From a virus (taxonomy: Duplodnaviria > Heunggongvirae > Uroviricota > Caudoviricetes), in the IMG/VR virus record IMGVR_UViG_3300025000_000063, positions 1 through 64,000 of that record: a stretch of 64,000 bases of DNA; one strand, written 5' to 3'. The notes beneath the pieces were generated by a model, which saw only the letters and a program-made list of their open reading frames with translations, had not been told where the DNA came from and made no database searches. This document shows, in pieces, positions 1 through 56,381 of this stretch (positions are counted from its first letter, which is position 1; every line of letters starts with the position of its first letter). Position numbers and translations under genes: made by a program.

Positions 1-26
1 GTCCATGGAAGAAAGCTGTAGAGATT

Positions 27-563
27 TCATAGGCCCCCCTCCTGTAGCGGTTCTTCACGCTTCCAATGATAAAATATTATACCTAACGTTAAATAGAAAA
101 TTCTAACGCTTGTTAGGTAAACTTTATGTAAGTTACTGATTATAAAAGATTTAAACCATGGGTGGCTTGGATTCTCAGGCAGACCAGCAGAGTTGAAACC
201 CTTGCCTCTCTTACGCTGGTGGCGTATCTCATGACAATCACGGCAGAGTGACATTAGATTGTCCATATCCAGGCGCTTTGACGGATCGTCCTCAACAGGG
301 ATGATGTGATGTACCACTACGGCCGGCCGGATAACACCGGCACCTTGGCAATCAATACATAAGGGGTTTTGTTTGAGATACCAATTCCGGAGCCGCTCCC
401 ACGCCGTATCGTAGCCGCGCGCCCTGGAGCTGGGCCGCTTATCTTGGTCTTGTCGGTATGATTGTTTTTTAGTGTCTTGGATGGACTGGCAGGCAGGGCA
501 GTACGTTGATGTGGTTAGATTCTTTTTACATTTTAAACATGGTTTGTTAGGTGTTTCGGGCAT
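27..563 (-). mobile_element. HNH homing endonuclease (Zn-ribbon + HNH motif)
   Basis: The translation has an N-terminal CxxC...CxxC ribbon. The HNH core reads VVHHIIP...NLMSLCRDCH...H. It sits at the edge of the early region, as is typical for phage homing endonucleases. Confidence 0.6.
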
Positions 564-4796: not shown

Positions 4797-5150
4797 ATGC
4801 GTCAATGGATGGCCGATCCTTCCTTGATGTGTCGTAAGCATTTACTTGGTGAACATGTTGAACACCATATGTTTATCGGCGCTTTAAAAAGAGAAAAGAA
4901 TGTGAACGGATACCTGGAAAAAGGCCTTTTAGAACCGCGATCTTTATTCAAGCGCCATGAAGAACTTGTCAAAGAGATGAAAAAGAGAGGGTATAAACAC
5001 TCTTCTCCTTTAACTAAAGAAGACGCGACTTGCATATCTTACCTTACCGAAAAACAGAAAAAAGCTAAAATAAACGCCGCTGTATCTTACAAAGATCTTG
5101 TATTAAGATGCCCTGAATGCTTCAAACTCATGATGGAGGAAATACGATGA
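4797..5150 (+). CDS. pyrimidine dimer DNA glycosylase (T4 endonuclease V / DenV-like)
   Basis: The N-terminal pattern SLMCRKHLLGEHVEHHM and the LFKRHEELVKEMKKRGYKH block resemble the DenV family, which has L.DQHL.AE.RE near its N-terminus followed by ...L..E..KRGF. This was compared by eye only. Confidence 0.45.
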   Translation: MRQWMADPSLMCRKHLLGEHVEHHMFIGALKREKNVNGYLEKGLLEPRSLFKRHEELVKEMKKRGYKHSSPLTKEDATCISYLTEKQKKAKINAAVSYKDLVLRCPECFKLMMEEIR

Positions 5151-6929: not shown

Positions 6930-7700
6930 TTACTTCTTCTGAAACAGTAGCCGTTTTTTCAATTCTTCTTTTGCCCGAAACGCTATAGGCTCTTTTTTTC
7001 TTGCACCACGATTGCAAACTATTTCTATCTCGGTCAGATACCCATCAGATGTTGACTGGTGGGTTATTAAGCTGGGGTACTGTTTAATCTTTTTCTTGAA
7101 GTCAGAGGCGCGGAACTCAGGAACACACATAGCCCTCGACAGGGCTGTAACAAACGGCTTTGATGAAGCGTATTTAAGGCCCAGGCTTTGCATATACAGA
7201 ACCACGTCTTTTATTCTGTCGGTGAGCTTTGTGCTGGTGACTTTGTATGTCCCGTTAATAAACATATCACTGTAGTTTCCGCCGGAACCGGAAGGACTCC
7301 CTCTAAAAAACCCGATGGCGGTCGCGAGAGGAATCCTTGTTTCTTCGATAAAATCCTTTATCACAATATAATCTGGTCTTCCGTCTCTGACATACCCGTT
7401 CAGGAAATCGTGGAGAGACCATTTATTAACCGTCTTGGCCAAGTCGGGGATTGATATATCATCATTGCAGACAACGTATTTCGCCGGTATCCCCAAACTC
7501 TGAGCCACTTCAAGCCGGTGATGGCCGTCAATGACTTTAAATTTTTTGTTACCGTTGACTCTGACATGGCATGGATAAGCAGGTATCCAACCATGTTCAC
7601 GCATTGCCTTTGTTAAAAATCTGATCTTTGAAACATCCCGGTTGATCGGATGGAGTTCAAATTTTTCATAATCTGTCGTTGACCTTACTAAATCATTCAT
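6930..7700 (-). CDS. ParB/Srx-fold N-terminal domain protein (ParB-like nuclease domain)
   Basis: KVIDGHHRLEVAQSLGIP is the characteristic ParB N-terminal GxxR box. The start codon overlaps the upstream gene. Confidence 0.6.
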   Translation of the reverse strand: MNDLVRSTTDYEKFELHPINRDVSKIRFLTKAMREHGWIPAYPCHVRVNGNKKFKVIDGHHRLEVAQSLGIPAKYVVCNDDISIPDLAKTVNKWSLHDFLNGYVRDGRPDYIVIKDFIEETRIPLATAIGFFRGSPSGSGGNYSDMFINGTYKVTSTKLTDRIKDVVLYMQSLGLKYASSKPFVTALSRAMCVPEFRASDFKKKIKQYPSLITHQSTSDGYLTEIEIVCNRGARKKEPIAFRAKEELKKRLLFQKK

Positions 7701-8467
7701 GATACAATCCTTTCTATGTGGTTATTTATCCAAGCGACGACCCTCTCAAAAGCCTCTCTTCTTTGGGGGTCGTCGCTTCTAATCCTTTCTAATTGAGAAA
7801 TCGCCATCGTTGAGAACTGCATTGCAGAAGATGCTCGTTTGATATCTTCTTTTTTTGGCTCAACATTAATTTTCTTATAAGCCCCGGCAACACTCTTGTT
7901 AAGATCCTTCTTTAATTCTTTGGCCTTCTCAGGGTCAGATTGTTTCAAGCTGTCAATAGCATCCACAACAGCAATTGCTTTTTCAGCCGTTTTCCCTGAC
8001 CATCCTACTTTTGCGGCTGCGATGTCACGGGACTTACCTTCGCTTAGTGGTGGTAAATTTTCCACAACTAAAGGTTTGCCTGTTTTATGGACTTCCAGGT
8101 TTTTTGCACCGGCGGCAGCTTGTCTATCAGCCGCCCTCTTATCCTCAATCGCCTTCAACACTTTAACCTCCCTGGCTTTCTGTTCCTTGGTCTTCTCCCT
8201 CTGGACGTTGGAAGCTATAAGAATTTCCACCAGCTTATCCGGGTCGGTTTCTTCAATCTCCTGAACCGGGATGACTTCATGTTTGAGAGCTTTGCAGACA
8301 TTCCAACGACGATGCCCGGAAATGATGGTGAAATCTAAGGTAACGATTACCGGAGAGGTAATGCCGTGTTTTTTTATGCTCTGATAAAGATCGTCGTCAA
8401 ACGAATCACCATATATGAGGTTGTTTTGCGGGTGAGGTTTAAGACTATTAATAGGAGCATGATTCAT
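7697..8467 (-). CDS. ParB-like N-terminal domain protein with a Lys-rich C-terminal half
   Basis: LKPHPQNNLIYGD...ISGHRRW is a ParB-N motif. It is arranged in tandem with the second ParB-like gene. Confidence 0.6.
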   Translation of the reverse strand: MNHAPINSLKPHPQNNLIYGDSFDDDLYQSIKKHGITSPVIVTLDFTIISGHRRWNVCKALKHEVIPVQEIEETDPDKLVEILIASNVQREKTKEQKAREVKVLKAIEDKRAADRQAAAGAKNLEVHKTGKPLVVENLPPLSEGKSRDIAAAKVGWSGKTAEKAIAVVDAIDSLKQSDPEKAKELKKDLNKSVAGAYKKINVEPKKEDIKRASSAMQFSTMAISQLERIRSDDPQRREAFERVVAWINNHIERIVS

Positions 8468-8707: not shown

Positions 8708-8953
8708 TTATTCATCATAAAAGGACGCACAGGTTTCGGTCCCTGGCTCCAATTCAGTGTGACCGGCGTCCTTCACAACAAATGCTCCTTTCTCAAATAC
8801 TATCTCTTTAAATTTCTTATCACTGACGGCCAGCACCACCACATTCATATAATACTCTTTGTGATTAATACCCGTAGCTGCGTGAACCGCTTGAGCGGCC
8901 AACTTACCAGGCGACATTTTCAAATTTTTCCGGTAAATTATTTTGAGTCTCAT
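8708..8953 (-). CDS. PTH2-family peptidyl-tRNA hydrolase-like protein (short, 81 aa)
   Basis: NLKMSPGKLAAQAVHAA matches the PTH2 signature (GKGK[IL]AAQ..HAA). The protein ends with DAGHTELEPGTET and appears to lack the last about 25 residues of canonical PTH2. Confidence 0.5.
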   Translation of the reverse strand: MRLKIIYRKNLKMSPGKLAAQAVHAATGINHKEYYMNVVVLAVSDKKFKEIVFEKGAFVVKDAGHTELEPGTETCASFYDE

Positions 8954-12617: not shown

Positions 12618-13130
12618 CTACCTCGTTTCAAAAAGGATTTTATAAGGAGAGGTCTTCTTTATTTTATCCTGCATCTCGGAAGTTTCAAACCTCTCCAAGC
12701 GTATGGTTTTTATTTCCGCGCCAGTTACATTTTCAAAGTCTGCTATCAGTTTAAGGATTTCATCTGCCAATACTTCTTTTAAATTTTTATCGTTCATTAT
12801 TTCCCCCCCCCCACAAAAATATTTCTTTATTTCACTTCTCGTTATAGCCGGTCGGGTCCATTCTCTTTGAAACCTTCTCCAGTTTTTGTCTTCATCCCCG
12901 GCAAAAGAATTAAAAGCCGGTCCGTCCATTTCTGCCGGAGCAATCTTTGACCACGCTTTATAAAGATATTCAGCCTTTTCGATGTCATAAGTGAATAAGG
13001 TGCTGATATGAACTCTTGTTATATCCTTTGGGGTGCTCTCGTTCGGAACATCGAAAAAACAGAGATGATCCTCCGGGGAAGCCGAAGTTTTTCTTGGGAA
13101 CACTCTTGCAAGGCCTATCTCTCCCAGCAT
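12618..13130 (-). CDS. hypothetical protein (170 aa) containing a C10 homopolymer tract at 12803-12812
   Basis: The ORF overlaps the primase stop. GGG codons are encoded by the poly-C run. The C-terminal 57 aa may be a separate product, because the run G10 AAATA ATG could act as an RBS. Confidence 0.35.
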   Translation of the reverse strand: MLGEIGLARVFPRKTSASPEDHLCFFDVPNESTPKDITRVHISTLFTYDIEKAEYLYKAWSKIAPAEMDGPAFNSFAGDEDKNWRRFQREWTRPAITRSEIKKYFCGGGEIMNDKNLKEVLADEILKLIADFENVTGAEIKTIRLERFETSEMQDKIKKTSPYKILFETR

Positions 13131-15055
13131 GTCAGTACCCTCCTGTTCCCGGATAAGGGGTCAAGTCTGTATTCTTTTTTACCGTGTTCGTGGATCATTG
13201 AAAAAATCTCCTCTAAGTTATCGGTTATGGTGTTGACCGCCTTGCTCGATACTCCTGCTGCTTTTATTTCTTCCGCTATTTTCTTTAATGTGGTTGGGCC
13301 TTGTCTATCGACAATAGACATAGCCGCTGAAGCCAGAGACTCGTTCGATCCTGAGCCTATAACTTGGTCGAGTTGAACGGCTTCCAGGACGCCGGTGGTT
13401 TCGTCGTTGTCGTAGAACAGTTTTACTGATTTCTTTTCAAACCATTCAAATGACTCTGAAGGCGGCGCAAGGTTAGCTTTGGCGGAATCAAGGCGGGTGT
13501 ACCAGGAAGCCCGGGCGGGCGTTATACCGTATTGCAGGGCCTCTTTTTCGCTCATGGTATAAAAGGTATGGGCTATGCGGGCGGCACTTGCTAAAGCGGA
13601 TGCGCCGCGTGCTTTGTCCATGTTCCCGTGGGTGTCTTTGGCGCCTTTAGATGTGTGGTGGACAATGGATATGGCGCAACCGGTTTCTTTGGCTATCTTT
13701 CGGAAGGACCGCATAACCATGTTGATTGCCCCATTGTCGTTTTCGTTGACTTGATGGCATTCTACAAATGGGTCGAGAATGAACAACTTAATACGCCGTT
13801 GGCGTATCTGGTTGACAATAGCCCCGAGAAGAGGTTCGTTTATAACGGGTCGGTTCCGGTCATCATATGAAACAAGGGTCAACGGGTTGTCGTAGGCTGA
13901 ACTGTAATAAAAGTTTTCAAGGTCTTCTTTGGTTAAATTATATTGCTTTGCAGCCGCCATTATTCTAAGGGAGAGTTCGTCGAACGGATCTTCTGTGTTG
14001 AAGAGCCATACGGCCCCCGGTAATTTAACCTCGTCATGGGTGAGTCGTTTTCCGGACGCCACTGAGATTGCTTCGAGGATGGTGAGGAGGGATTTTCCTG
14101 CGCCTCCTGGGGCGATGGTGAGGGTGGTGAAACCGAGTAAATAGCGATGTCCGAGGAGCCATTGTCGGGGTTGAAGCTGCTCGATTTTGGTTTCTGCGGC
14201 GCATTTGACCATGGCTGTGGAAGAAATACCACTGGAAAACATCGCTTCTGGTGTTGCATTGCCTGGTCTGTCTTTTGCGTACTTGAAAGCGTTTGCAATT
14301 TTCTTTTCAAGTTCAGTCTGGTCCCAGGGGGGAAATGCCTTGGTTTCGTTCCAGTGCTCTGATAATAATTCCAGGGCAGTGGCTTCTGAGACATTGAAAT
14401 CCCGTAATTTGCACGCAATTTGGAATGTAACAGCATCTCCTCCATTGCCTTGAATTGCTTCGGGTGCATAGCTTTTAAGCCATAGAATAGCTCTTTCAAC
14501 GTTGGAGTTTTTGTCTGGTTCTGATATGGGGATGTCATAATCCTCTCTCCTTTCTGTTGGTATTCCTACGAAGTTTATTATCCATTCCGGCAGGGGGGCG
14601 GGGATACCTTTTTTGCACAGAACGTACTCCCCCTTTCCCTTCACGTGTTGGCCCGGTAAAGGGATCATCACGGGTATGTCTATTCCTTTTGCTAATTTGT
14701 CTACTCCTCTGGCGCAATACCCTTTGAATACGTAATGAACTCCCGCATTGGGGGTTTTCGCTTCCATAGTTTCTGGTAGATTGCCGTATTGATTTTCAAG
14801 GTTTACAAGGTTTATTCCCCCTTTTTTTCCTTTTTTGTTGTCGACATCAACAACAGTCAGTCCAGAAGCTTTTAAATTCACGCAAAAATAACAGTTGGGC
14901 CATTGTTCGACCCATTTTTCCAACGCAGGTATTTCGGAAGAAGATTTGGTACTCCATTCTATGCAGGGGTAATGTTTTTCATTACTCCAACGGGAGGGGA
15001 ACAGCTTCCACCCCGCTTTTGCAAAAGGTATAGCGTTTAACAGATTTTTATTCAT
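13115..15055 (-). CDS. bifunctional primase-polymerase (PrimPol) / RecA-like replicative helicase (AAA_25, RepA/D5-like)
   Basis: The N-terminal half reads PSRWSNEKHYPCIEW...VVDVDNKKG..., which is PrimPol-like. The C-terminal half has Walker A LTIAPGGAGKSLLT and Walker B/arginine region LFILDPFVECH...ISIVHHTSKG. Confidence 0.75.
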   Translation of the reverse strand: MNKNLLNAIPFAKAGWKLFPSRWSNEKHYPCIEWSTKSSSEIPALEKWVEQWPNCYFCVNLKASGLTVVDVDNKKGKKGGINLVNLENQYGNLPETMEAKTPNAGVHYVFKGYCARGVDKLAKGIDIPVMIPLPGQHVKGKGEYVLCKKGIPAPLPEWIINFVGIPTERREDYDIPISEPDKNSNVERAILWLKSYAPEAIQGNGGDAVTFQIACKLRDFNVSEATALELLSEHWNETKAFPPWDQTELEKKIANAFKYAKDRPGNATPEAMFSSGISSTAMVKCAAETKIEQLQPRQWLLGHRYLLGFTTLTIAPGGAGKSLLTILEAISVASGKRLTHDEVKLPGAVWLFNTEDPFDELSLRIMAAAKQYNLTKEDLENFYYSSAYDNPLTLVSYDDRNRPVINEPLLGAIVNQIRQRRIKLFILDPFVECHQVNENDNGAINMVMRSFRKIAKETGCAISIVHHTSKGAKDTHGNMDKARGASALASAARIAHTFYTMSEKEALQYGITPARASWYTRLDSAKANLAPPSESFEWFEKKSVKLFYDNDETTGVLEAVQLDQVIGSGSNESLASAAMSIVDRQGPTTLKKIAEEIKAAGVSSKAVNTITDNLEEIFSMIHEHGKKEYRLDPLSGNRRVLTCWER

Positions 15056-15805: not shown

Positions 15806-16225
15806 TCATTCCCCCCAGTTAATAACCCAGTTCTTTTCTTTGCAAATAGCTATGATCAAATCTGAGTCTTTCATTGTTGGAGGACCGGGAACCCACAGGT
15901 CTCTTTTCTCTTGGAAAAAATGCAATCTTTCAACTTTTTTCCCGCCATATGGGCATGGGCCGCCATCCGCCCAGATATCAAACATTTCGGGCTTTGGATG
16001 CGCCCAAGCGTCTCTTCGCATAAGTTCAAGCGTGAGAGCGGGTGGCAATTTACCAAGTTGGCATCTTAATATGCTGACCGGGAAGAAAGCAAAGCTGCAC
16101 CGTTCTGCAAAGCTGCACTGTTCCGGGAAGTTTTTGATTAACGAATAATCCCCGGTAGGGCAGTGTTTGACTCTATGATAGTCAACAGGAAATAAATCAA
16201 ATTCTTTTTGTGTGTACTTTTTCAT
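15806..16225 (-). CDS. hypothetical protein (139 aa)
   Basis: ORF. Its stop overlaps the upstream Thg1-like gene. Confidence 0.45.
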   Translation of the reverse strand: MKKYTQKEFDLFPVDYHRVKHCPTGDYSLIKNFPEQCSFAERCSFAFFPVSILRCQLGKLPPALTLELMRRDAWAHPKPEMFDIWADGGPCPYGGKKVERLHFFQEKRDLWVPGPPTMKDSDLIIAICKEKNWVINWGE

Positions 16226-16926
16226 TTCACCAGCTCCTCTATAATTTCCTTGTTTTCAGTGAAAATCGCATCAGGCCTTGCAGAAATCCCCTCCGCTCCT
16301 CTAAACATAAATCCCCCGTTTTTCCATACCGGGTCGAGATCTGCCCAGTTGATTCCTTTTGTGTAGAGCAATTCATGCAGGTCCGGTGTCTTTTTGTTTT
16401 GGAGTTCCTTGTGCGGGAAATGAGCCTGGGCCAGCATTTGAATAGAATTTCTGAGCCAATCTTGTTGCCTCCAGATGAAATAATTACACACCTCTTCCTT
16501 TGGGATATTGAACACCCGGCAGTCGAATAGCCCGTCTTCGCCAAAGGTTTTTGAAAACTGAACCGAGGCCATACCCGCTGCGACTGAACACATTTTTTGG
16601 ATATTGTAATCAAACCATGCCTCGGTTGTTAACAGTTCGTAGTCTGTCAATAATAAGGAGATTTCATCTGATTGAACGTAGGCGCATTTAGCGCCCTGTA
16701 CTTTCGCTAAAAGGGTCAAAGCGGTTGAGCCCATACACTGTCTGAACATATCGTCAAAAGGTTTGTTGCATTGACGAGTCAGCGTGTGAAAGGCCTTGCC
16801 GTCCAGTCGCATTATGACTGGCGTTCGCCGGGTGAGTTTTAACCGGTAGCGGTCTTCATAATTCTTTTTCATTCTGTCGCCTAAACTGTCATTCTTCATA
16901 TAAACCCCCTTTCCTTCGCCAACCAT
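16222..16926 (-). CDS. Thg1-like protein (tRNA-His guanylyltransferase family, 3'-5' nucleotide polymerase)
   Basis: VIMRLDGKAFH and VQSDEISLLL match the two catalytic aspartate-containing motifs of Thg1/TLP ([VI]V[VI]R.DGR.FH and GQSDEYSF). The C-terminal region, YFIWRQQDWLRNSIQ, also resembles the family. The true start is probably MKNDS at about 16899. Confidence 0.7.
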   Translation of the reverse strand: MVGEGKGVYMKNDSLGDRMKKNYEDRYRLKLTRRTPVIMRLDGKAFHTLTRQCNKPFDDMFRQCMGSTALTLLAKVQGAKCAYVQSDEISLLLTDYELLTTEAWFDYNIQKMCSVAAGMASVQFSKTFGEDGLFDCRVFNIPKEEVCNYFIWRQQDWLRNSIQMLAQAHFPHKELQNKKTPDLHELLYTKGINWADLDPVWKNGGFMFRGAEGISARPDAIFTENKEIIEELVK

Positions 16927-17162
16927 TCCGGCATTGTTATTTCCACGGCCTCACCGACCTCCACAGGGTCAGAAACTTCGATTTGGCTTTTGGGTATCCA
17001 TACAGCGTCGTCTTTATTGCCTGTCTCGGAAACAAGGTACGAACGCTCTGTTTCATGATGAATTTCTAAGGTGATTTCGATGTTACTCACGATTGCTCTC
17101 CTTCCATAAAGATCTGAATTTTTCCAGCTTCTCCGCTGGGATAGACACCTGGGCCAGCTCAT
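16896..17162 (-). CDS. hypothetical protein (88 aa)
   Basis: ORF in the operon. Confidence 0.4.
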   Translation of the reverse strand: MSWPRCLSQRRSWKNSDLYGRRAIVSNIEITLEIHHETERSYLVSETGNKDDAVWIPKSQIEVSDPVEVGEAVEITMPEWLAKERGFI

Positions 17163-17700: not shown

Positions 17701-17740
17701 CTCGTTAATGGGGAGCGGGCCAACAACAAAGGAGAAAATT

Positions 17741-19732
17741 ATGGATTTTAACATTTTTAAAAAGGCAATGGAATCCCAGTTTGCAAAAATGACCGGGGAG
17801 TTTTTTGTAACTGACGTGGACAAAGATGAGATGTGGAATCTTTATCTCAACAGTTTCCCTCCTGGAACAAACGAAATTTACAGAACAAGACGGGAGTATG
17901 ACTGCCAATGCTGTAAGCAGTTTATCCGGGCCTGCGGTAATGTTATTTCGTTTTCAAGCGGAGAGAGGATGTCTATCTGGGATGTTCAAGTGGATGGCGC
18001 TTTTAAAGTGGTTGCCGAAGCCATGTCAAGATTCGTTAAGGCTGCGCCGGTTAAAAACGTTTTCCGGTATTTCCAAAACAGAGTCGGAACTGACCACAAT
18101 GTTCAGATGGGCGAGGAAGGGAGAATGATAACTTGGAACCATTTTTCACTTGATTTGCCCGCGAGCGTTGTCCGGCCTGCGGACTCAATTGATTCTTTGA
18201 TCGGTGAAATTCGTAGCAGTCAGGAAGTGTTTTTCAGGGGGCTCAATGAAATAACTGTTGAAGCTCTGGAAACGGTTCTGGAATTGATCGCTCAGAATTC
18301 TCTTTACCGGGGGGAAGAACATCAGGCGGCGGTAAAAGCTTTTTCCAAGCTCAAAAAAGAATTCGATAAAAGCGCCGAAAAAATTGATTTTTCATGGATT
18401 CACTCCGGTGCAAAATGCGCCAGAATTCGGAACACTGCAATAGGAACTCTTCTGGTTGATATTTCTAACGACATGCCGCTGGATCAGGCCGTCAGGATGT
18501 TTGAATCGAAAGTCGCCCCGGCCAATTACAAACGTCCTACCGCCCTTGTTACCAAAGGCATGATTGAAAAAGCCCAGAAAACGGTGGAAGAACTGGGCAT
18601 TGAATCTGCTTTAAAACGTCGGTTCGCTGTTGAGCAGGATCTGACCATTAATAACATTCTGTTTGCGGACAGGGCCACCAAAGTTTCCATGAACGTGTTT
18701 GATGACCTGAAAGACGACGTTTCCGTACCAGTGAAGTCGTTGGAGAAAGTCGAAGAGGTCAGTGTCGGGGCGTTTGTTGAGAGCATTCTCCCCCAAGCAT
18801 CCAGTATATCTCTTTTGTTTGAAAACAGGCATTGCGGGAACCTGGTGTCTCTGATTTCCCCGTGCGATCTTGCTGCCAAAAATATTTTCAAATGGAAAAA
18901 CAATTTCTCCTGGTCGTATAAAGGGGAGTTTGCCGACTCGATTAAAGAAAGAGTGAAGGCCGCCGGCGGGAGTGTTACCGGGGATTTACGACTGTCCATT
19001 GGCTGGTTCAATTATGATGATCTGGACAATCATCTGGTAGAACCAGGAACATTCCATATCTATTTTCCATCAAGTAACCGAGTTAACCCCATCTCTTTGG
19101 GGCAACTCGACGTAGACATGAACGCAATGAGTGGTAAATCCAGATCCGCCGTTGAAAACATAACTTACCCGGAAAAGAGGAGGATACAGGAGGGGTACTA
19201 TACTTGGTTCGTTAACCAGTTTACCAGGAGAGAAACTGTAGATGTGGGTTTCACTGCTGAAATGGAGTTTGAGGGAAAGATTTACACATTCAATTACCCT
19301 AAAGCGGTTGTGGGCAATGTTATCGTGGCAAAGTTTAAATACTCTCACACAAACGGGATAGAGATCCTTGAGTCTCTTCCATCAACAGAAACCTCTAAAA
19401 TTGAATGGTGTTTGTCTACCCAGAAATTCCATGACGTTTCGATGATTATGAACTCTCCAAACCATTGGGATGGTAACGAAACAGGCAATAAACATTATTT
19501 TTTCATGCTTAAGGGATGTAAAAACGTTGATTCAGCCCGGGGTTTTTACAACGAGTTTTTGAACGAGGGGTTAACAGAACACCGGAAAGTATTCGAAATT
19601 TTAGGATCTAAAATGAAAGTAGAACCCTCGGATAACCAATTGAGCGGGTTGGGCTTTTCTTCCACTCAAAGAAATCATGTTTTCTGCAAAGTCGCAGGAA
19701 ACTTTACCAGAACAATTAAAATCGTATTTTAA
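17741..19732 (+). CDS. large hypothetical protein (663 aa), first gene of the rightward operon
   Basis: AAAGGAGAAAATT RBS before ATG 17741. I recognise no family. An N-terminal Cys cluster, CQCCKQFIRAC, is present. Confidence 0.55.
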   Translation: MDFNIFKKAMESQFAKMTGEFFVTDVDKDEMWNLYLNSFPPGTNEIYRTRREYDCQCCKQFIRACGNVISFSSGERMSIWDVQVDGAFKVVAEAMSRFVKAAPVKNVFRYFQNRVGTDHNVQMGEEGRMITWNHFSLDLPASVVRPADSIDSLIGEIRSSQEVFFRGLNEITVEALETVLELIAQNSLYRGEEHQAAVKAFSKLKKEFDKSAEKIDFSWIHSGAKCARIRNTAIGTLLVDISNDMPLDQAVRMFESKVAPANYKRPTALVTKGMIEKAQKTVEELGIESALKRRFAVEQDLTINNILFADRATKVSMNVFDDLKDDVSVPVKSLEKVEEVSVGAFVESILPQASSISLLFENRHCGNLVSLISPCDLAAKNIFKWKNNFSWSYKGEFADSIKERVKAAGGSVTGDLRLSIGWFNYDDLDNHLVEPGTFHIYFPSSNRVNPISLGQLDVDMNAMSGKSRSAVENITYPEKRRIQEGYYTWFVNQFTRRETVDVGFTAEMEFEGKIYTFNYPKAVVGNVIVAKFKYSHTNGIEILESLPSTETSKIEWCLSTQKFHDVSMIMNSPNHWDGNETGNKHYFFMLKGCKNVDSARGFYNEFLNEGLTEHRKVFEILGSKMKVEPSDNQLSGLGFSSTQRNHVFCKVAGNFTRTIKIVF

Positions 19733-22369: not shown

Positions 22370-23014
22370 ATGAGTAGCCTATATTGGGATGATTTTGAAA
22401 GACGTATATCTGAAACTGTTTCAGCCGTTAATTCAAAAACCAAACCCCCGGTCAGGCGTGTGGCTGTTTTTATAACGAACCGGTGTAATTTCAGGTGTCA
22501 TTACTGCAATGTAAACCAAAACGAAAAAACATTATCCGAAGAAGCTTTTAATGGCATCATTAATCGCTACGGGAGTGGCGCGATAATCCATATAACTGGT
22601 GGTGAGCCTTCCGTTGTTCCTTGGTTATACTCTTATATGGAAAACAGAAAGGATGTCCGGTTTCATTTAAATACTAACGCCTATTTAGCTCCTCCTAAAA
22701 ACATTAAAAGGTTAAAAGTTTCACTGGACACTCAGTATAAAGATTATTTTAATTTTTTAATTGGGGTTAATTTTAACGCTTTCGATTCGGTGGTGGAAAA
22801 TATAAGGCAAGCGTGTAAAAATACGGTTGTCAGTATAACCTATACTTTGACAAAAGAAAACCATAAGGATTCCGTTGAATTCGCCAAATGGGCGTTAAAA
22901 CAATTCCCCGGTCTATACGCTGTTTTTTTCAGTGTTTACAAAGGAGATAATAAGAGGTTTAAGTTTGATGATTTGTCAGTTAAAGTTTTTTTAATCAGGT
23001 GTTACCTAAGTTGA
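22370..23014 (+). CDS. radical SAM enzyme, N-terminal core (CxxxCxxC = CNFRCHYC; ITGGEP SAM-binding motif)
   Basis: VAVFITNRCNFRCHYC and IIHITGGEPSVVP are present. The frame ends just after the slippery run TTTTTTA at 22987-22993. Confidence 0.65.
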   Translation: MSSLYWDDFERRISETVSAVNSKTKPPVRRVAVFITNRCNFRCHYCNVNQNEKTLSEEAFNGIINRYGSGAIIHITGGEPSVVPWLYSYMENRKDVRFHLNTNAYLAPPKNIKRLKVSLDTQYKDYFNFLIGVNFNAFDSVVENIRQACKNTVVSITYTLTKENHKDSVEFAKWALKQFPGLYAVFFSVYKGDNKRFKFDDLSVKVFLIRCYLS

Positions 23015-23854: not shown

Positions 23855-24049
23855 ATGAAAATTTATTGTTGGCTTGTAGGATTGGCTATTATTATTGGGT
23901 TATTGATCGGCGTGGTTTTGCCAGGCTTGATCTCGTCAAATAGCTCGGAATTGTTTTTGATTGGGGTGGTTTTGATAATCGTATCAATCCCGCTCGTTTA
24001 TTTCATAGGAAAGAAAATATATAAGGAGATTCAAAATGCAAAGATTTAA
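23855..24049 (+). CDS. small two-TM membrane protein (possible NfeD-like partner of the SPFH protein)
   Basis: Hydrophobic, 64 aa. Its stop overlaps the SPFH start. Confidence 0.4.
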   Translation: MKIYCWLVGLAIIIGLLIGVVLPGLISSNSSELFLIGVVLIIVSIPLVYFIGKKIYKEIQNAKI

Positions 24050-24884
24050 ATGGTTTTTTGTTTTGCTGGTGCTTTTGTCAACGGTTGCCTGTTCAAAGGT
24101 TCCTGCTGGTCATGTCGGGGTAAAAGTGTACCTTCTTGGTGGTTCAAAGGGTGTTGAGTCTGAGCAGTTGGGCGTGGGGCGGTATTGGATTGGATGGAAT
24201 GAAGAACTGTATCTGTTCCCTGCGTTTACTCAGAATTACGTATGGACCAAAGATAAAAACGAAGGCAGCCCCAACGACGAGTCAATATCATTTCAAACAG
24301 TTGAAGGCATGAGCGTCAACGCCGATGTCGGGATTTCATACTCAGTTAAACCAGAAAAGGTTGCAGAAGTATTTCAGAAGTACAGAAAGCAGATGGGTGA
24401 AATAACAGATATTTATCTCAGGAACATGGTGAGAGACGCTTTCGTGTCAATAGCGTCCACAATGCCGGTTGAAAACGTGTATGGCGCTGGCAAGGCAGAA
24501 CTTTTAAAATCTGTTGAGGATTATGTTAAAAGCCAGTGCGAGGATATGTTCAATATAGAGCGTATTTATTTAGTCGGTGATCTTAGGTTGCCACAGCAGG
24601 TTACGGCGGCTCTAAATGCTAAAATACAGGCTACTCAGCAGGCCCAGCAGGTGGAAAATGAGATTCGGGCGGCAAAAGCCCAGGCCGAAAAGAAAATAGC
24701 CGAGGCAAAAGGTGAAGCTGATTCATTGCTTCTTGTTGCTGAATCACAGGCCAAAGCCAATAAAATTCTTGCGGCATCTTTGACCCCTGAATTTGTCCAG
24801 TACCAGGCGTTGAAGCAATGGGACGGCAAATTGCCAGGAATAATGATACCGGGCGGTGCCGTTCCGTTCGTGTCGGTGAAATAA
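24036..24884 (+). CDS. SPFH/band-7 (prohibitin/HflK-like) domain lipoprotein
   Basis: Signal peptide with lipobox LSTVAC. VPAGHVGVKV is the SPFH start motif. An Ala/Gln-rich coiled-coil C-terminus follows. Confidence 0.65.
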   Translation: MQRFKWFFVLLVLLSTVACSKVPAGHVGVKVYLLGGSKGVESEQLGVGRYWIGWNEELYLFPAFTQNYVWTKDKNEGSPNDESISFQTVEGMSVNADVGISYSVKPEKVAEVFQKYRKQMGEITDIYLRNMVRDAFVSIASTMPVENVYGAGKAELLKSVEDYVKSQCEDMFNIERIYLVGDLRLPQQVTAALNAKIQATQQAQQVENEIRAAKAQAEKKIAEAKGEADSLLLVAESQAKANKILAASLTPEFVQYQALKQWDGKLPGIMIPGGAVPFVSVK

Positions 24885-29519: not shown

Positions 29520-29741
29520 ATGATAGAACCAGCCGAAGCGATTCTTTGGAGTGCGCTTTTCTACGTAATAGTCGTATATTGTTTGCTTTTAATTGTGAAG
29601 GTCCTGTTCATAAAGAACCCATGTTATGTCCTGCCCCCTCCACCCAGTAGAAAAGACGCTGGTGAGCTTTCAAGAAGAACGGACATGTTTTTGGAGTATT
29701 ACTCAACGCATCAAAGGAAAAGTAATGAAAGCTTGTCTTGA
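29520..29741 (+). CDS. small hydrophobic protein (73 aa) overlapping the PolA start
   Basis: ORF with an N-terminal TM helix. Confidence 0.3.
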   Translation: MIEPAEAILWSALFYVIVVYCLLLIVKVLFIKNPCYVLPPPPSRKDAGELSRRTDMFLEYYSTHQRKSNESLS

Positions 29742-31947
29742 TTTTGAGACCCGGAGCAAAGTTGATCTGAAAACCGCCGGTCCATGGAAGTACGCTGCTG
29801 ACCCGTCAACCGACGTGGTTTGTCTTTCGGTTAAAAAAGACGACCAACCTTCACGAGCGTGGATTCCGGAATGGGTTTCAAAAAAATTAAACGGAATGAA
29901 AGGATTCATCTCTGATCGAGAGTTATCAGAAAAAATTCAAACTGCCGAAAGTTATTCCGCTTTCAATGCTGAATTCGAGCGCGCTATCTGGCATCACATT
30001 ATGCACAAGCGTTACGGCTTTCCCGATTTAGACCTCAATAAAATGCACTGCTCCGCCGCTGCTGCCGCATATATGAACCTGCCCCGGAAACTTGAAAAAG
30101 TTTGCGAGGTGCTGAATCTTCCTGTTCAAAAAGACGACGCTGGCCATCGGTTGATGTTGAAGATGTGTAAGCCTCGGAACCCGACAAAAAAAGAAAAAGC
30201 GGAAAATCCGAATTGGTCAAATATGACCTTTTGGCATGAGAAACCAGAAGACATTATTCGGCTGATCCAGTATTGCAACACTGATACAGATGCAGAATAC
30301 GGAGTTTCTAAGGTGGTTATGCCTCTTTCTACTTTAGAGCGCCCTGTATGGCTATTAGATCAACGTATAAATCAGCGAGGGGTTCACATAGACCTTGATA
30401 ATGTAACATCCATTGTGGGTACTCTGGCAATACATGAATCGAAATTATTAGGCAGGATGTTTAAACTAACCGACGAGATAGTAAAAAGCCCTCGGCAGAC
30501 AGATAAGTTAAAAGAGTGGTTAAAAATTCAGGGTGTTTTTATTAATGATGTTCAGAAACAAACTATAGCAGAGTTGTTAGACAGAAAAGGCTTATCCGAC
30601 GAGGTTAAAGAAGTTCTTCAGATTCGGCAGGCCCTCGGAAAAGCCAGCACATCAAAATTTGGGGCCATGCTGAACCGGGTTCAGGAAGATCAAAGATGCA
30701 GGGCTTTGTTCATGTATTCAGGGGCGGGAACCCACAGGTTTACGGCCAAAGCAATTCAACCTCAGAACATGGTTCGGGATTCCTATTCTGGGAAGAAACT
30801 CGAAGATGCCTATGAAGCTTTTCGACAGGGAGATATTGAATGGATAAAATGGGCGTTCGATGATCCTTTTCCTGCCGCAAGCCGATGTTTGCGTGGGTCA
30901 ATTATGGCGGCTCCGGGGAAAATATTTCGCTGTGCGGACTACCATTCTATTGAGGGCCGGGGTAATGCCTGGCAGGCTGGTGATGAAGAAAAAATGGACC
31001 AGTTCAGAAGAGAGGACAATAAGACCGGCCCAAAGATCTACAATTTAGCTGCTGCATCTATATTCGGCATCGATCCTTACAAGATCACCAAAGACATGCC
31101 AGAATACCTTGTTGGTAAGGTTGAAGAGCTGGCCAGGGGTTATCAAGGGGGCATCGGCGCAGGGGCGTCCATGGCTAAAAACTACAACCTTAGTTTAGAG
31201 ATCCTTCCTCCATTGGTTCTCCCCTTGGCGACTCCGGAAGAATTGAATGGGCCATATGGAGCCCGGTCTCTGGCTGAGAAATATCTGAAAAAGAATCCCG
31301 GGTCCATGAGTATGAACGCAGCCATTGCCTGCGATATCCTTAAAAGAAAATGGCGGGCAAAGAATATGCCTATTGTTCGATCCTGGAAGCAGCTTGAAAA
31401 CGCAGCAAAGATGGCCGTAACAAACCCAGGGGAAACTTTCACTTTTCGGAAAACAGCTTATAAGACTTGGGTTGATCCGAATAAAAACAGATACCTTCTT
31501 TGTCAGCTCCCCAGTGGAAGAGTGCTGTTTTATTTTAACCCCCAGGTCCGTATGGTTAGAAATGATTTCTTGGATGATGATCTCGATGTCGAGGAGACGC
31601 GTCCTGGGAGTATAGTTGTCAAAGCAGTTAAATATCGTGAAGTAATTACCTGCAACGTCGTTGACTCGGTGACAAAACAGTGGCTCCGCCGCCCGCTCTA
31701 TGGGGGCCTGCTATGTGAAAATAACATCCAGTCTTTTTGCCGGGATTTGTTGGTGGAAGCAATGCTCCAGGTAGAAGCGGCTGGGTATCCCGTGGTTATG
31801 CACGTCCACGATGAAATCCTGTCGGAAGTAGACAAGGGCTTTGGCAGCCTTGAAGAATTCATTAAAATAATGGAAATTGTTCCGACCTGGGCAACGAACA
31901 TGCCAATTAAAGCCGCGGGTTGGGAAGGAATGAGGTTTAGGAAATGA
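29737..31947 (+). CDS. family A DNA polymerase (phage PolA type, N-terminal 3'-5' exo)
   Basis: MKACLDFETRSKVDL is an Exo I-like start typical of the PolA partnered with DUF2800/DUF2815. A C-terminal palm motif region, VHDEIL, is present. Confidence 0.75.
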   Translation, partial: LDFETRSKVDLKTAGPWKYAADPSTDVVCLSVKKDDQPSRAWIPEWVSKKLNGMKGFISDRELSEKIQTAESYSAFNAEFERAIWHHIMHKRYGFPDLDLNKMHCSAAAAAYMNLPRKLEKVCEVLNLPVQKDDAGHRLMLKMCKPRNPTKKEKAENPNWSNMTFWHEKPEDIIRLIQYCNTDTDAEYGVSKVVMPLSTLERPVWLLDQRINQRGVHIDLDNVTSIVGTLAIHESKLLGRMFKLTDEIVKSPRQTDKLKEWLKIQGVFINDVQKQTIAELLDRKGLSDEVKEVLQIRQALGKASTSKFGAMLNRVQEDQRCRALFMYSGAGTHRFTAKAIQPQNMVRDSYSGKKLEDAYEAFRQGDIEWIKWAFDDPFPAASRCLRGSIMAAPGKIFRCADYHSIEGRGNAWQAGDEEKMDQFRREDNKTGPKIYNLAAASIFGIDPYKITKDMPEYLVGKVEELARGYQGGIGAGASMAKNYNLSLEILPPLVLPLATPEELNGPYGARSLAEKYLKKNPGSMSMNAAIACDILKRKWRAKNMPIVRSWKQLENAAKMAVTNPGETFTFRKTAYKTWVDPNKNRYLLCQLPSGRVLFYFNPQVRMVRNDFLDDDLDVEETRPGSIVVKAVKYREVITCNVVDSVTKQWLRRPLYGGLLCENNIQSFCRDLLVEAMLQVEAAGYPVVMHVHDEILSEVDKGFGSLEEFIKIMEIVPTWATNMPIKAAGWEGMRFRK

Positions 31948-35905: not shown

Positions 35906-36232
35906 ATGTCATCATCAATAGAAGAAATTAAAAAGACTGGGGAATTCACCTGGGGCAAGCTGGTGGCCTGGCATGAGATAGGGCCGTATACGCTGCTTGA
36001 ATATCATCCCCATAAATTTAAGGATAACCGGGCAATTCACAACGAGTATACAGACGAGGTATCATTCCACGGTTGGATAGACGGAAAGGATATCCATGAA
36101 TCCTGGCCCACGTTGGAAACTGGAATAATCGGCCTGATATGTAAAAAACATAGCGGTGGTTCTGCTTTGGAATATTTCTTTTGCAGGGGCATCCAGGCAC
36201 CGCTGTATGATGGGAAGGAGATAAAAGAATGA
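35906..36232 (+). CDS. hypothetical protein (108 aa)
   Basis: ORF. Confidence 0.4.
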   Translation: MSSSIEEIKKTGEFTWGKLVAWHEIGPYTLLEYHPHKFKDNRAIHNEYTDEVSFHGWIDGKDIHESWPTLETGIIGLICKKHSGGSALEYFFCRGIQAPLYDGKEIKE

Positions 36233-36606
36233 GGACGATAAAATTCAGACAGTGGGATTCTGTGTCAAGAACAATGATGTCTGGCTTCGGAGCCACATTC
36301 CCCAGCGGATGGTCAGGATTCCCGAAGGTATCGTGGGAAAGATACCCGATCATGCAATTTACCGGCCTGAAAGATAAAAACGGGAAAGATATTTATGAGG
36401 GAGATATTATCTCTCTGTCTTGTGGGTGCTGCCTTTACGAGGTTGTTTGGGATGAAAAAAAATTGTGCTGGTGGCCTGTGGATGACAGTTTTTCACAGGT
36501 TCACGGCTTAGATGGCTTCGATGTTTGGACGCATAGAATTGAGGTTGTCGGGAATGTTTATGAAAACCCTGAAATGGCTATCCGTTTTGAGGGGGTGAAA
36601 GAATGA
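36229..36606 (+). CDS. hypothetical protein (125 aa)
   Basis: ORF. Confidence 0.4.
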   Translation: MRTIKFRQWDSVSRTMMSGFGATFPSGWSGFPKVSWERYPIMQFTGLKDKNGKDIYEGDIISLSCGCCLYEVVWDEKKLCWWPVDDSFSQVHGLDGFDVWTHRIEVVGNVYENPEMAIRFEGVKE

Positions 36607-36959
36607 GACCAAAACCAAAAGTAGGCCAGATACTTTATAGCCTGAACGTAGGCAATGCAGCCAGGCACACTGAACAAAAATTAACCCCTGTTGTGGTCAA
36701 AAAGGTTGGCCGTAAATATTTTAAAGCTGGTCAAGATGGCAACAATTGGTCAGACAGGGAGTATTCTATAGACAGTTGGGAAGAAAGCAGCAACTATTTT
36801 CCGACTTCTATGCTTTATGAAACCGAACAAGAATGGCTCGATGAGAAAGAAAAAGCAGAGCTATTCGTTTTGATCCGAAATAGATTCGGCTGGGGTGCTG
36901 AAAAGAAAATCACCCTTGAAAAACTTAGGGCCATTAAAAAAATATTGGAGAGAGAATGA
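36603..36959 (+). CDS. hypothetical protein (118 aa)
   Basis: ORF. Confidence 0.4.
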   Translation: MRPKPKVGQILYSLNVGNAARHTEQKLTPVVVKKVGRKYFKAGQDGNNWSDREYSIDSWEESSNYFPTSMLYETEQEWLDEKEKAELFVLIRNRFGWGAEKKITLEKLRAIKKILERE

Positions 36960-55297: not shown

Positions 55298-55992
55298 AGC
55301 CGTGGCTCAATAAATTCCATAACTGCTTGGCCATTCCACTGCAATCCTGCCCATTCAATGGCATCTTTCAATTCAGAATAATCTGCTTTGACCATCTTTT
55401 CGGGCCAAATTACTTTGGTATTGATCCCTTGATTGATAATCTCATTAAATTTATTTTCGTGAAATTCTACCCAGTAATTCCATCCTTCTTCCGGTTGTTT
55501 AAACCCCATTCTGCGCAGAATATGTGGCTGGTTAAAACTCCGCATAAAAGCAGTTTGCATGCATGAGAATATGATATCCTCTTTTCTCCTGCGAACGATG
55601 ATCCATTTGCTTTCAGGAAAGGCAAAAGCCCAAACAGGCCATAACAAAGACATCTTTGCACATTTGTACATCCAAATGGTTTCCGGGGTCCATCCTTGTT
55701 TTGTAATATTGGCCAAAACCCTCTGCCGTAAATCAAACGGGATCTTCACTTTATTTGTAGGAGGCAATGGAAATTGGCCCAGAGGATCATATCCTAAATC
55801 CCTAAACAAAGGCTTTACAATCTCTTGCCGCAAAGGAAGGTTCTCAAACATCCCCTTCTCATTGTATGCAGACGGGCCTCCGGTATCACCTTTCCAAGCG
55901 CCACACAGGTGGAAACAAGCAGCAACCATAGAAGTTCCAGAACGAGCCGCACCAGTGATTAAGATTGGTTTACTGGAATAGTCTTTTAGCAT
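55273..55992 (-). CDS. sulfotransferase (Stf0 / Sulfotransfer_3-like)
   Basis: PILITGAARSGTSMVAACF is a 5'-PSB-like PAPS-binding P-loop resembling carbohydrate sulfotransferases. Confidence 0.55.
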   Translation of the reverse strand: MLKDYSSKPILITGAARSGTSMVAACFHLCGAWKGDTGGPSAYNEKGMFENLPLRQEIVKPLFRDLGYDPLGQFPLPPTNKVKIPFDLRQRVLANITKQGWTPETIWMYKCAKMSLLWPVWAFAFPESKWIIVRRRKEDIIFSCMQTAFMRSFNQPHILRRMGFKQPEEGWNYWVEFHENKFNEIINQGINTKVIWPEKMVKADYSELKDAIEWAGLQWNGQAVMEFIEPRLWRARRNK

Positions 55993-56381
55993 ACTAAATT
56001 CCTCAAATTCTTCATTTGATATAAAGATAAAGGGTTTTCGTCCTCACCCGGTTCCTCATATTCTGTACCAGGCCACAATGTTCCACCCGGGATATGAATT
56101 AATGCTGCCCCAGGGACTTTTTCAAGCATCATTTGCCGCCATGATTTTTTCGGCATTATTGCTGCTATGATAACATTATTACCTTGCTCCCGGATAAGTG
56201 CTGCAAGACTTGCCATCCTGAATAAATGCTGTTCTCGATCTTGGTCAGAAAATCCTGTGGGATAAATTGCCCGGATAGCGTCACTGTCTAACAGCACAGC
56301 ATCAATATTTTTTGCCAAAGAAGTTGCCAATGTAGTTTTACCCGCACCAGCTTTCCCTGTTATTAAAATAACTTGATTCAT
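55986..56381 (-). CDS. adenylylsulfate (APS) kinase-like P-loop kinase
   Basis: ITGKAGAGKTTLA is Walker A. LLDSDAIRAIYPTGFSDQDREQHLFRMASLAALI resembles the CysC LDGDN[IV]R..L..DLGFS..DR.ENIRR..EVA.L pattern. Confidence 0.55.
   Translation of the reverse strand: MNQVILITGKAGAGKTTLATSLAKNIDAVLLDSDAIRAIYPTGFSDQDREQHLFRMASLAALIREQGNNVIIAAIMPKKSWRQMMLEKVPGAALIHIPGGTLWPGTEYEEPGEDENPLSLYQMKNLRNLVC

Follow-up and report, generated by a model that had tools for sequence, protein, structure and literature searches.

A gene for a predicted bacterial-type Thg1-like 3'-5' polymerase in the replication gene string of an uncultivated groundwater phage

A protein of the Thg1/TLP family was found to be encoded by an uncultivated phage, in a stretch of 64,000 nucleotides that was analyzed as a whole (IMG/VR record IMGVR_UViG_3300025000_000063, positions 1 to 64,000; hereafter the window). 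Judged by its sequence, the protein belongs to the bacterial-type Thg1-like proteins (TLPs) rather than to the true tRNA-His guanylyltransferases, despite the usual database name. It would be an active palm-domain nucleotidyltransferase with 3'-5' RNA-extending activity, and its most likely role is to maintain tRNAs that phage translation can use, a reading to which we give a probability of about 0.6. We infer that the enzyme is active and that it acts on tRNA in vivo; the 5' damage that it would repair is hypothetical.

The gene, its product and its fold

An open reading frame without interruption covers 16222..16926 on the minus strand and encodes 234 aa from its first ATG (16926). The second in-frame ATG (16899) gives a product of 225 aa followed by a TGA stop. 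The gene likely starts at ATG 16899 rather than at ATG 16926, because a Shine-Dalgarno-like sequence lies 5 nt before the former and because the 225-aa form is the one called on public contigs. Public metagenomes from several samples contain the exact 225-aa product on 18 contigs, and gene callers chose ATG 16899 in all six of the contigs shown, while an exact look-up of the 234-aa form in public metagenome proteins gave no record. Two further ORFs that overlap the same coordinates, 16210..16530 (plus strand) and 16239..16613 (minus strand), are shadow frames of the TLP gene. The features of the gene are as follows.

16222..16899, minus strand: TLP coding sequence (ORF list, PF04446, PHROG 4717, 4kgk match, AlphaFold model)
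16905..16914, minus strand: Shine-Dalgarno-like GGAAAGGGGG, read from the sequence, 5 nt upstream of ATG 16899
16786..16818, minus strand: motif 1, VIMRLDGKAFH, residues 28-38 (HMMER alignment to 4kgk)
16651..16677, minus strand: motif 2, VQSDEISLL, residues 75-83 (HMMER alignment to 4kgk)
16435..16455, minus strand: LRNSIQM, residues 149-155, after W148, opposite CHINNLY of Candida Thg1 (alignment to 3wbz)

The preliminary description of this DNA had placed the protein in the Thg1/TLP family and proposed a profile search; in that search PF04446 (Thg1), whose gathering score is 29.2, matched with 90 bits and E 1.5e-25, the alignment spanning positions 4-130 of the 130-position profile. The match to PHROG 4717 ('tRNA-His guanylyltransferase') had an E-value of 1.9e-81. 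The Pfam Thg1C model alone scored 15.5 bits, below its cut-off of 26.3. Searches of NCBIfam and PADLOC with the TLP gave no match, and nothing pointed to a defence polymerase of the mCpol/Cas10 type, which was rejected.

Residue functions were numbered after BtTLP (Hyde et al., 2013, PMC3701042). The two motifs that the preliminary description had read from the sequence were both present as listed above. In motif 1, R31 and D33 (metal-binding; codon 16801..16803) correspond to R28 and D30 of BtTLP; in motif 2, S77, D78, and E79 (codons 16663..16671) correspond to S74, D75, and E76. The three conserved carboxylates were kept (D33, D78, and E79; D30, D75, and E76 in BtTLP; D29, D76, and E77 in the human protein), and the metal-binding aspartates D33 and D78, which had been predicted, were intact in the alignment to 4kgk. 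The D75A mutation inactivates BtTLP (PMC3701042). The activation and nucleotidyl-transfer residues were also kept (K46 and S77; R31, R128, and E15), matching BtTLP K43 and S74; R28, R131, and E12. The last residue of the BtTLP-assigned set, M155, corresponds to M158.

The conservation alignment comprised the phage TLP and 36 metagenomic homologues of 57-89% identity, the closest relative being 89% identical. R31, D33, S77, D78, E79, N151, and M155 were invariant among the 37 aligned sequences, and all BtTLP-assigned residues were invariant or nearly so.

An AlphaFold model built on the homologue alignment reached a pLDDT of 88.6 and a pTM of 0.87. Its best PDB match was BtTLP (4kgm_A, 231 columns, TM 0.84; BtTLP chains reached up to 0.84-0.85), and all 32 PDB matches with E <= 0.001 were Thg1/TLP structures. 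The Thg1 fold, including the C-terminal domain, was present over the full model.

The best solved structure by sequence was likewise that of BtTLP (4kgk, E 1.1e-57), with 52% identity over 192 aligned positions. In the PDB sequence search, the Methanosarcina TLP followed with E 2e-15; the Candida, human, and yeast Thg1 proteins were matched far more weakly than BtTLP (E 4e-08 to 0.014). In eukaryotic Thg1, H154 of the HINNLYN motif stacks on the anticodon base G36 (PMC6471195). This His is replaced by Leu149 in the phage TLP (aligned segment WLRNSIQ), and the eukaryotic motif is absent; thus non-templated, tRNA-His-specific addition of G-1 would not be expected of the phage protein. Since BtTLP was the closest characterised relative, the assigned residues were kept, and the HINNLYN His was absent, the protein was assigned to the bacterial-type TLPs and not to the tRNA-His-specific Thg1 proteins. 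The E-values to BtTLP and to the Methanosarcina TLP against those to eukaryotic Thg1 fully supported the bacterial type that had been proposed earlier.

Compared with solved members of the family, the phage TLP shares with BtTLP (4KGK/4KGM) the carboxylates, the activation and nucleotidyl-transfer residues, and the fold (TM 0.84). However, it is shorter (225 vs. 245 aa), its C-terminal ~25 residues are not alignable by sequence, and its activity is predicted; the BtTLP gene is chromosomal in a bacterium, whereas this one is phage-borne. The TLP of Methanosarcina acetivorans (5AXK-5AXN, including a tRNA-Phe complex) belongs to the archaeal branch and has ~29% identity to the phage TLP. It has the same fold, with a TM of 0.75-0.79 between the phage model and the tRNA complex, and the same template-dependent mechanism would apply. 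Eukaryotic Thg1 (human 3OTB, Candida 3WBZ, yeast 5XOX) has the palm-domain core and the metal-binding carboxylates in common with the phage TLP, but the identity is 20-24%, and HINNLYN exists only in the eukaryotic proteins.

Gene neighbourhood and phage genome

The window proved to be phage DNA, as had been supposed, on the evidence of both replication and structural genes. It encodes a PrimPol-helicase, a family A DNA polymerase, exonucleases, an ssDNA-binding protein, an SNF2 helicase, a dNMP kinase, and ParB-like proteins. The structural module in the window comprises a major-capsid-like protein, a tail terminator, a tail tube, and a 1478-aa tape measure, and the portal and terminase genes were found just past the right end of the window.

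The TLP gene is the fourth in a leftward string of an 82-aa ORF, an HTH protein, a 64-aa ORF, the TLP, and a 139-aa ORF, with overlaps of 4-8 nt. After the 139-aa ORF, the string continues with the PrimPol-helicase, the dNMP kinase, a PTH2-like 81-aa gene, and the ParB-like genes. It is a replication and nucleotide-metabolism module, marked by the PrimPol-helicase. The genes that bear on the TLP are the following.

16896..17090, minus strand: 64-aa ORF with a GTG start, a small acidic protein; directly upstream, its stop overlapping the TLP start by 4 nt
15806..16225, minus strand: 139-aa ORF; directly downstream, its ATG overlapping the TGA of the TLP gene (ATGA)
13115..15055, minus strand: PrimPol and AAA_25 helicase-type replication protein, 646 aa (PHROG primase/helicase; Pfam Prim-Pol and AAA_25 on public contigs)
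8708..8953, minus strand: mini peptidyl-tRNA hydrolase (PTH2-like), 81 aa (PF01981, E 1.1e-10, 42 bits against a cut-off of 23)

Because of the ATGA overlap, translation of the 139-aa ORF is likely coupled to that of the TLP gene. The 139-aa ORF had no match in Pfam, PHROG, or PADLOC, and the C-terminal domain of its protein is one that pentapeptide-repeat proteins also have, with homologues that carry PF00805 repeats. The 64-aa ORF matched PHROG 8389 (E 5e-12) and, below the cut-off, Pfam S1_2 (E 0.0049), a weak S1-like similarity. PADLOC gave no match for three neighbours of the TLP gene. The 64-aa and 139-aa ORFs were considered as conserved partners of the TLP and rejected, as neither recurs beside a TLP gene in 80 other viral loci. 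The PTH2-like gene lies 7.3 kb downstream on the TLP strand and was the sole other tRNA-related gene seen in the phage; a functional link between the two may exist.

The preliminary description had assigned the gene to an early/replication operon. The replication part was borne out by the string itself (HTH protein, PrimPol-helicase, dNMP kinase, ParB-like genes), and 'early' expression would follow from gene content. Scans for promoters and terminators between 6 and 18.2 kb did not rise above the level of shuffled sequence, and they are therefore mute on operon structure and timing.

The same sequence was found in Rifle groundwater metagenomes (PRJNA268031; JGI 3300025154/3300025009), and proteins of the phage were also found on a contig of 137,054 bp, which derives from the same Rifle groundwater data as ERZ28564033 and PRJNA268031. 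Look-ups with proteins near both ends of the window, and then with P0173, extended the sequence past the right end to ~82.7 kb. The possibility that the 137-kb contig was a doubled circle of 68.5 kb was rejected, as the extension did not wrap onto the window start. Because the phage proteins occur on this contig and no wrap was seen at ~82.7 kb, the genome is probably ~137 kb, of which ~54 kb lies outside the DNA examined. For the rest of the genome, exact-pattern scans of JGI metagenomes and IMG/VR gave no match, and a terminase-based scan recovered other phages only. Megablast of the 15 kb around the TLP gene matched no GenBank phage, which leaves this phage without a close cultured relative there. 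The closest cellular TLP homologues were also considered as a pointer to the host; the best were MAG contigs with 53-61% identity from unrelated phyla, and this approach was rejected.

tRNA genes and TLP loci in other phages

ARAGORN detected no tRNA gene in the window or the extension (82.7 kb of ~137 kb), and Rfam at gathering thresholds gave no RNA family in the window. Maturation of unusual phage tRNAs, one of the two roles suggested in the preliminary description, is thus left without a substrate in these 82.7 kb. A search of the window for polynucleotide kinase/phosphatase, RNA ligase, RlaP, and CCA-adding genes (tblastn and precomputed Pfam matches) found none near the TLP gene. Among the repair-partner families, tblastn found only the PTH2 homologue at 7.3 kb and a weak AAA_33-like kinase at 55986..56381. 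The latter encodes a 131-aa APS-kinase/AAA_33-like protein and lies in the structural module, where its neighbours include glycosyltransferases and a radical SAM gene. No end-healing or sealing partner adjoins the TLP gene in this phage; such partners recur in other viral loci, described below.

The comparison set comprised 80 IMG/VR viral loci, each covering the TLP gene and 10 kb on either side, and recurrent neighbours were defined as clusters of ORFs near the TLP. They were the following.

22 of 80 loci: AAA_33 polynucleotide-kinase-like protein, often with an HD-like C-terminus
17 of 80 loci: NAD-dependent DNA ligase
12 of 80 loci: HD-domain protein
12 of 80 loci: RlaP RNA-repair nucleotidyltransferase (one clade)
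10 of 80 loci: HAD_SAK_2 ('Swiss Army Knife RNA repair')
10 of 80 loci: metallophosphatase

A PTH2 homologue was located directly upstream of the TLP gene in two near-identical loci (L044 and L045) and within ~1.5 kb of it in a third (L067). These recurrent neighbours fit a role of phage TLPs in general in RNA or tRNA repair. The TLP neighbours of the present phage did not recur near the TLP in any of the 80 other loci, and the synteny with its replication genes was not conserved.

Another substrate that might be proposed is RNA other than tRNA: the enzyme would trim or extend the 5' ends of, for example, transcripts of the phage, small RNAs, or primers for replication. The position of the gene in a replication string with a PrimPol-helicase would suit such a role, as would the DNA ligase found in 17 loci and the broader RNA recognition of TLPs compared with Thg1 (PMC6471195). 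However, the characterised TLP activities described in PMC6471195 and PMC3061083 are on tRNA, the residues in common with BtTLP are fully conserved, and elsewhere the TLP gene is accompanied by tRNA and RNA-repair genes and not by replication genes. We regard a non-tRNA substrate as very unlikely.

tRNA genes were found within 10 kb of the TLP gene in 28 of the 80 loci and within 1 kb in 10, and 197 of the 198 tRNAs shared the strand of the TLP gene. Several loci had the TLP gene inside a large tRNA array. The data from other phages are suggestive of linkage between the TLP gene and tRNA genes; enrichment was not established, because tRNA density was flat over the 10 kb on both sides of the TLP and the comparison had no control set. 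A mismatch at position 1:72 was found in 9 of 179 unique tRNAs near TLP genes, at least three of the nine being tRNA-Met(CAT) genes. G-1 is encoded by three of the four tRNA-His genes in these neighbourhoods and is paired with C73 in two of the three; one exception is the tRNA-His of L034, where A73 stands opposite the encoded G-1, which is atypical for bacteria. As mismatches were few and most tRNA-His genes encode G-1, these data gave no sign of a general need of phage tRNAs for 5' editing or G-1 addition.

The TLP might instead be dedicated to maturing the tRNAs of the phage itself, by adding G-1 to tRNA-His or by repairing the 5' ends of tRNAs released from tightly packed arrays, and leave host tRNAs alone. 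The GenBank label 'tRNA-His guanylyltransferase' would agree with this, and carriers of the gene are large phages (39 of the best 40 records exceed 100 kb), three of which report 20 to 56 tRNA genes. The 10 loci with same-strand tRNA genes within 1 kb and the atypical tRNA-His of L034 point the same way, and the ~54 kb of the probable 137-kb genome outside the DNA examined could hold tRNA genes. Nevertheless, the sequence up to ~82.7 kb carries no tRNA gene and the window no Rfam family, G-1 is already encoded in three of four neighbouring tRNA-His genes (two with C73), only 9 of 179 neighbouring tRNAs have a 1:72 mismatch, and the HINNLYN anticodon-recognition motif is absent. Dedication to phage tRNAs therefore appears unlikely for this protein.

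Proposed reaction and the spread of phage TLPs

The preferred reading, repair of the tRNA pool, would proceed in three steps. With ATP or GTP, the TLP would activate the 5'-monophosphate of a tRNA whose 5' end is short by at least one nucleotide. An incoming NTP, Watson-Crick paired to the 3' strand of the acceptor stem, would then attack the activated end through its 3'-OH. Pyrophosphate would be removed and the cycle repeated until the acceptor stem is rebuilt. BtTLP itself acts on several kinds of tRNA in vitro, and its preferred reaction is to restore the N+1 nucleotide that 5'-truncated ones have lost (Rao et al., 2011, PMC3061083). The phage enzyme would be expressed from the replication and nucleotide-metabolism string during infection and might act jointly with the PTH2-like peptidyl-tRNA hydrolase.

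To our knowledge, no nuclease that removes tRNA 5' ends acts as a phage defence. The source of the 5' damage is the weakest link of tRNA repair for this reason. In a more specific version, the TLP, possibly together with the mini-PTH2, would be a counter-defence that restores host tRNAs cut at their 5' acceptor ends by an undescribed host nuclease, in a phage that may have no tRNA genes. We consider this version quite unlikely; if true, it would imply a class of defence that acts on tRNA 5' ends.

The idea of repair against host defences has a history. Thg1 was noted in phage 201phi2-1 and mimivirus, and a repair role of this kind was proposed (Anantharaman, Iyer, Aravind, 2010, PMC2904730). 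Later, Thg1 was listed among the RNA-repair enzymes of jumbo phages, along with a CCA-adding enzyme, RlaP, and PTH2, and the same anti-defence proposal was made (Iyer et al., 2021, PMC7824862). Genome papers on phages Bc431v3, BM10, and XacN1 mention the TLP gene and report 20 to 56 tRNA genes. No experimental work on any phage TLP was found in the searchable literature.

The view that such genes are rarely discussed for phages could not be upheld, given these proposals, the existence of PHROG 4717, and the number of records. By tblastn, TLP homologues were found in 160 GenBank phage records; none reached 60% identity, and in most the annotation was 'tRNA-His guanylyltransferase'. In IMG/VR, at least 582 viral contigs carried a relative, as did at least 592 of 600 stretches among the matches listed for a bacterial and archaeal species-genome collection, and more than 8000 metagenomic proteins matched below E 1e-10. 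By sequence, the gene is a moderately divergent addition to a well-populated and already annotated phage family, and the functional reading is reasonable and not new.

The gene could also be a passenger without a role in infection, or catalytically dead. Phage TLPs are scattered over unrelated phages without conserved neighbours, as a mobile accessory gene would be. However, the present copy has an intact frame, all catalytic residues, a good ribosome-binding site, and overlaps with its neighbours at both ends; moreover, an identical product occurs on the 18 contigs from several samples, and a relative with 89% identity exists. A passenger or dead gene is thus extremely improbable.

Examples of PHROG 4717 include genes of the Bacillus phages PK-3, Goe8, and Bcp1, the Rhodococcus phage Weasels2, the Xanthomonas phage XacN1, and the Mycobacterium phage Pound. 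They belong to the same family as the present gene, with 44-52% identity over 86-100% of its length, and the size of PHROG 4717 carriers fits the probable 137 kb here. On the other hand, no GenBank carrier reaches 60% identity to the phage TLP or has a DNA-level match; the three carriers with many tRNA genes contrast with the 82.7 kb here, in which no tRNA gene was found, and one of them, XacN1, carries genes for CCA addition and Pnkp/Hen1 as well. One more uncultivated phage thus joins a large annotated set with a reverse (3'-5') RNA polymerase.

Because it has no linked tRNA genes, kinase or ligase partner, or known host, this copy offers no special handle on the role of phage TLPs. Cultured carriers, such as the phages of Bacillus, Mycobacterium, Vibrio, and Caulobacter, are better experimental systems. 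The hosts of the 160 GenBank records include these four genera as well as Prevotella and Erwinia.

tRNA genes beside TLP genes in other phages

Among the IMG/VR viral loci carrying a TLP (Thg1-like protein) gene, ARAGORN detected CTA-anticodon tRNAs in the tRNA arrays adjoining the TLP gene of L018, L035, L036, L038, and L087. The program labels these tRNAs "Pyl," and the CTA anticodon reads the TAG stop codon. This suggested that the TLP carriers include stop-codon-recoding phages. In another of these viral loci, L034, a phage tRNA-His (9872–9947) was located 9 kb from the TLP gene; its G-1 was genomically encoded and its discriminator was A73, an arrangement that resembles that of eukaryotes. 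The G-1 of this tRNA might be lost during RNase P processing.

Genes sharing the leftward string with TLP

8708–8953, minus strand: PTH2-type peptidyl-tRNA hydrolase, 81 aa (Pfam, E = 1.1e-10)
15806–16225, minus strand: 139-aa ORF, with its ATG overlapping the TLP stop codon (ATGA)
6930–8467, minus strand: two ParB_N-like paralogues side by side, 256 aa each

The PTH2 gene and the TLP gene were members of one leftward gene string, and the PTH2 product was unusually short. In viral loci L044 and L045, a PTH2 homolog directly preceded the TLP gene upstream, and in L067 the two genes lay within ~1.5 kb of each other. The last ~80 residues of the 139-aa ORF formed a C-terminal domain that is found elsewhere after pentapeptide repeats (PF00805); ahead of this domain, there was only a degenerate remnant of such repeats (CSFAERCSFAF).

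Replication module and small accessory genes

17708–19732, plus strand: DUF8224 protein, 674 aa (PHROG 1735, E = 4e-263)
22370–23014, plus strand: radical SAM protein of the replication module, 214 aa
28955–29518, plus strand: Rv2179c-like 3′–5′ exonuclease (Pfam, E = 2.7e-54)
27–563: HNH gene
4797–5150: T4 endonuclease V-like gene (Pyr_excise)
36229–36606: YopX gene
36603–36959: ProQ-C-like gene

The DUF8224 gene, whose 674-aa product is conserved in many phages, and the TLP gene string were in divergent orientation. The 214-aa radical SAM gene was flanked by an SNF2 helicase on one side and a Band_7 protein (24036–24884) on the other. The Rv2179c-like exonuclease gene directly preceded the gene for the family A DNA polymerase (29626–31947); the exonuclease probably serves as a separate subunit for proofreading and not as an RNase. 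The last four genes listed were small accessory genes.

Structural module and contig ends

55986–58843, minus strand: radical SAM protein, two glycosyltransferases, and a 131-aa APS-kinase/AAA_33-like protein

These genes were located within the structural module, flanked by capsid-related genes and tail genes, and they may constitute a virion glycan or modification cassette. Contigs of several independent assemblies (scaffold_575, k141_318346) ended no more than ~40 bp from position 1 of the window (1–40), and a further contig, scaffold_360, ended at ~83.3 kb in window coordinates. These positions may represent genome ends or repeats.
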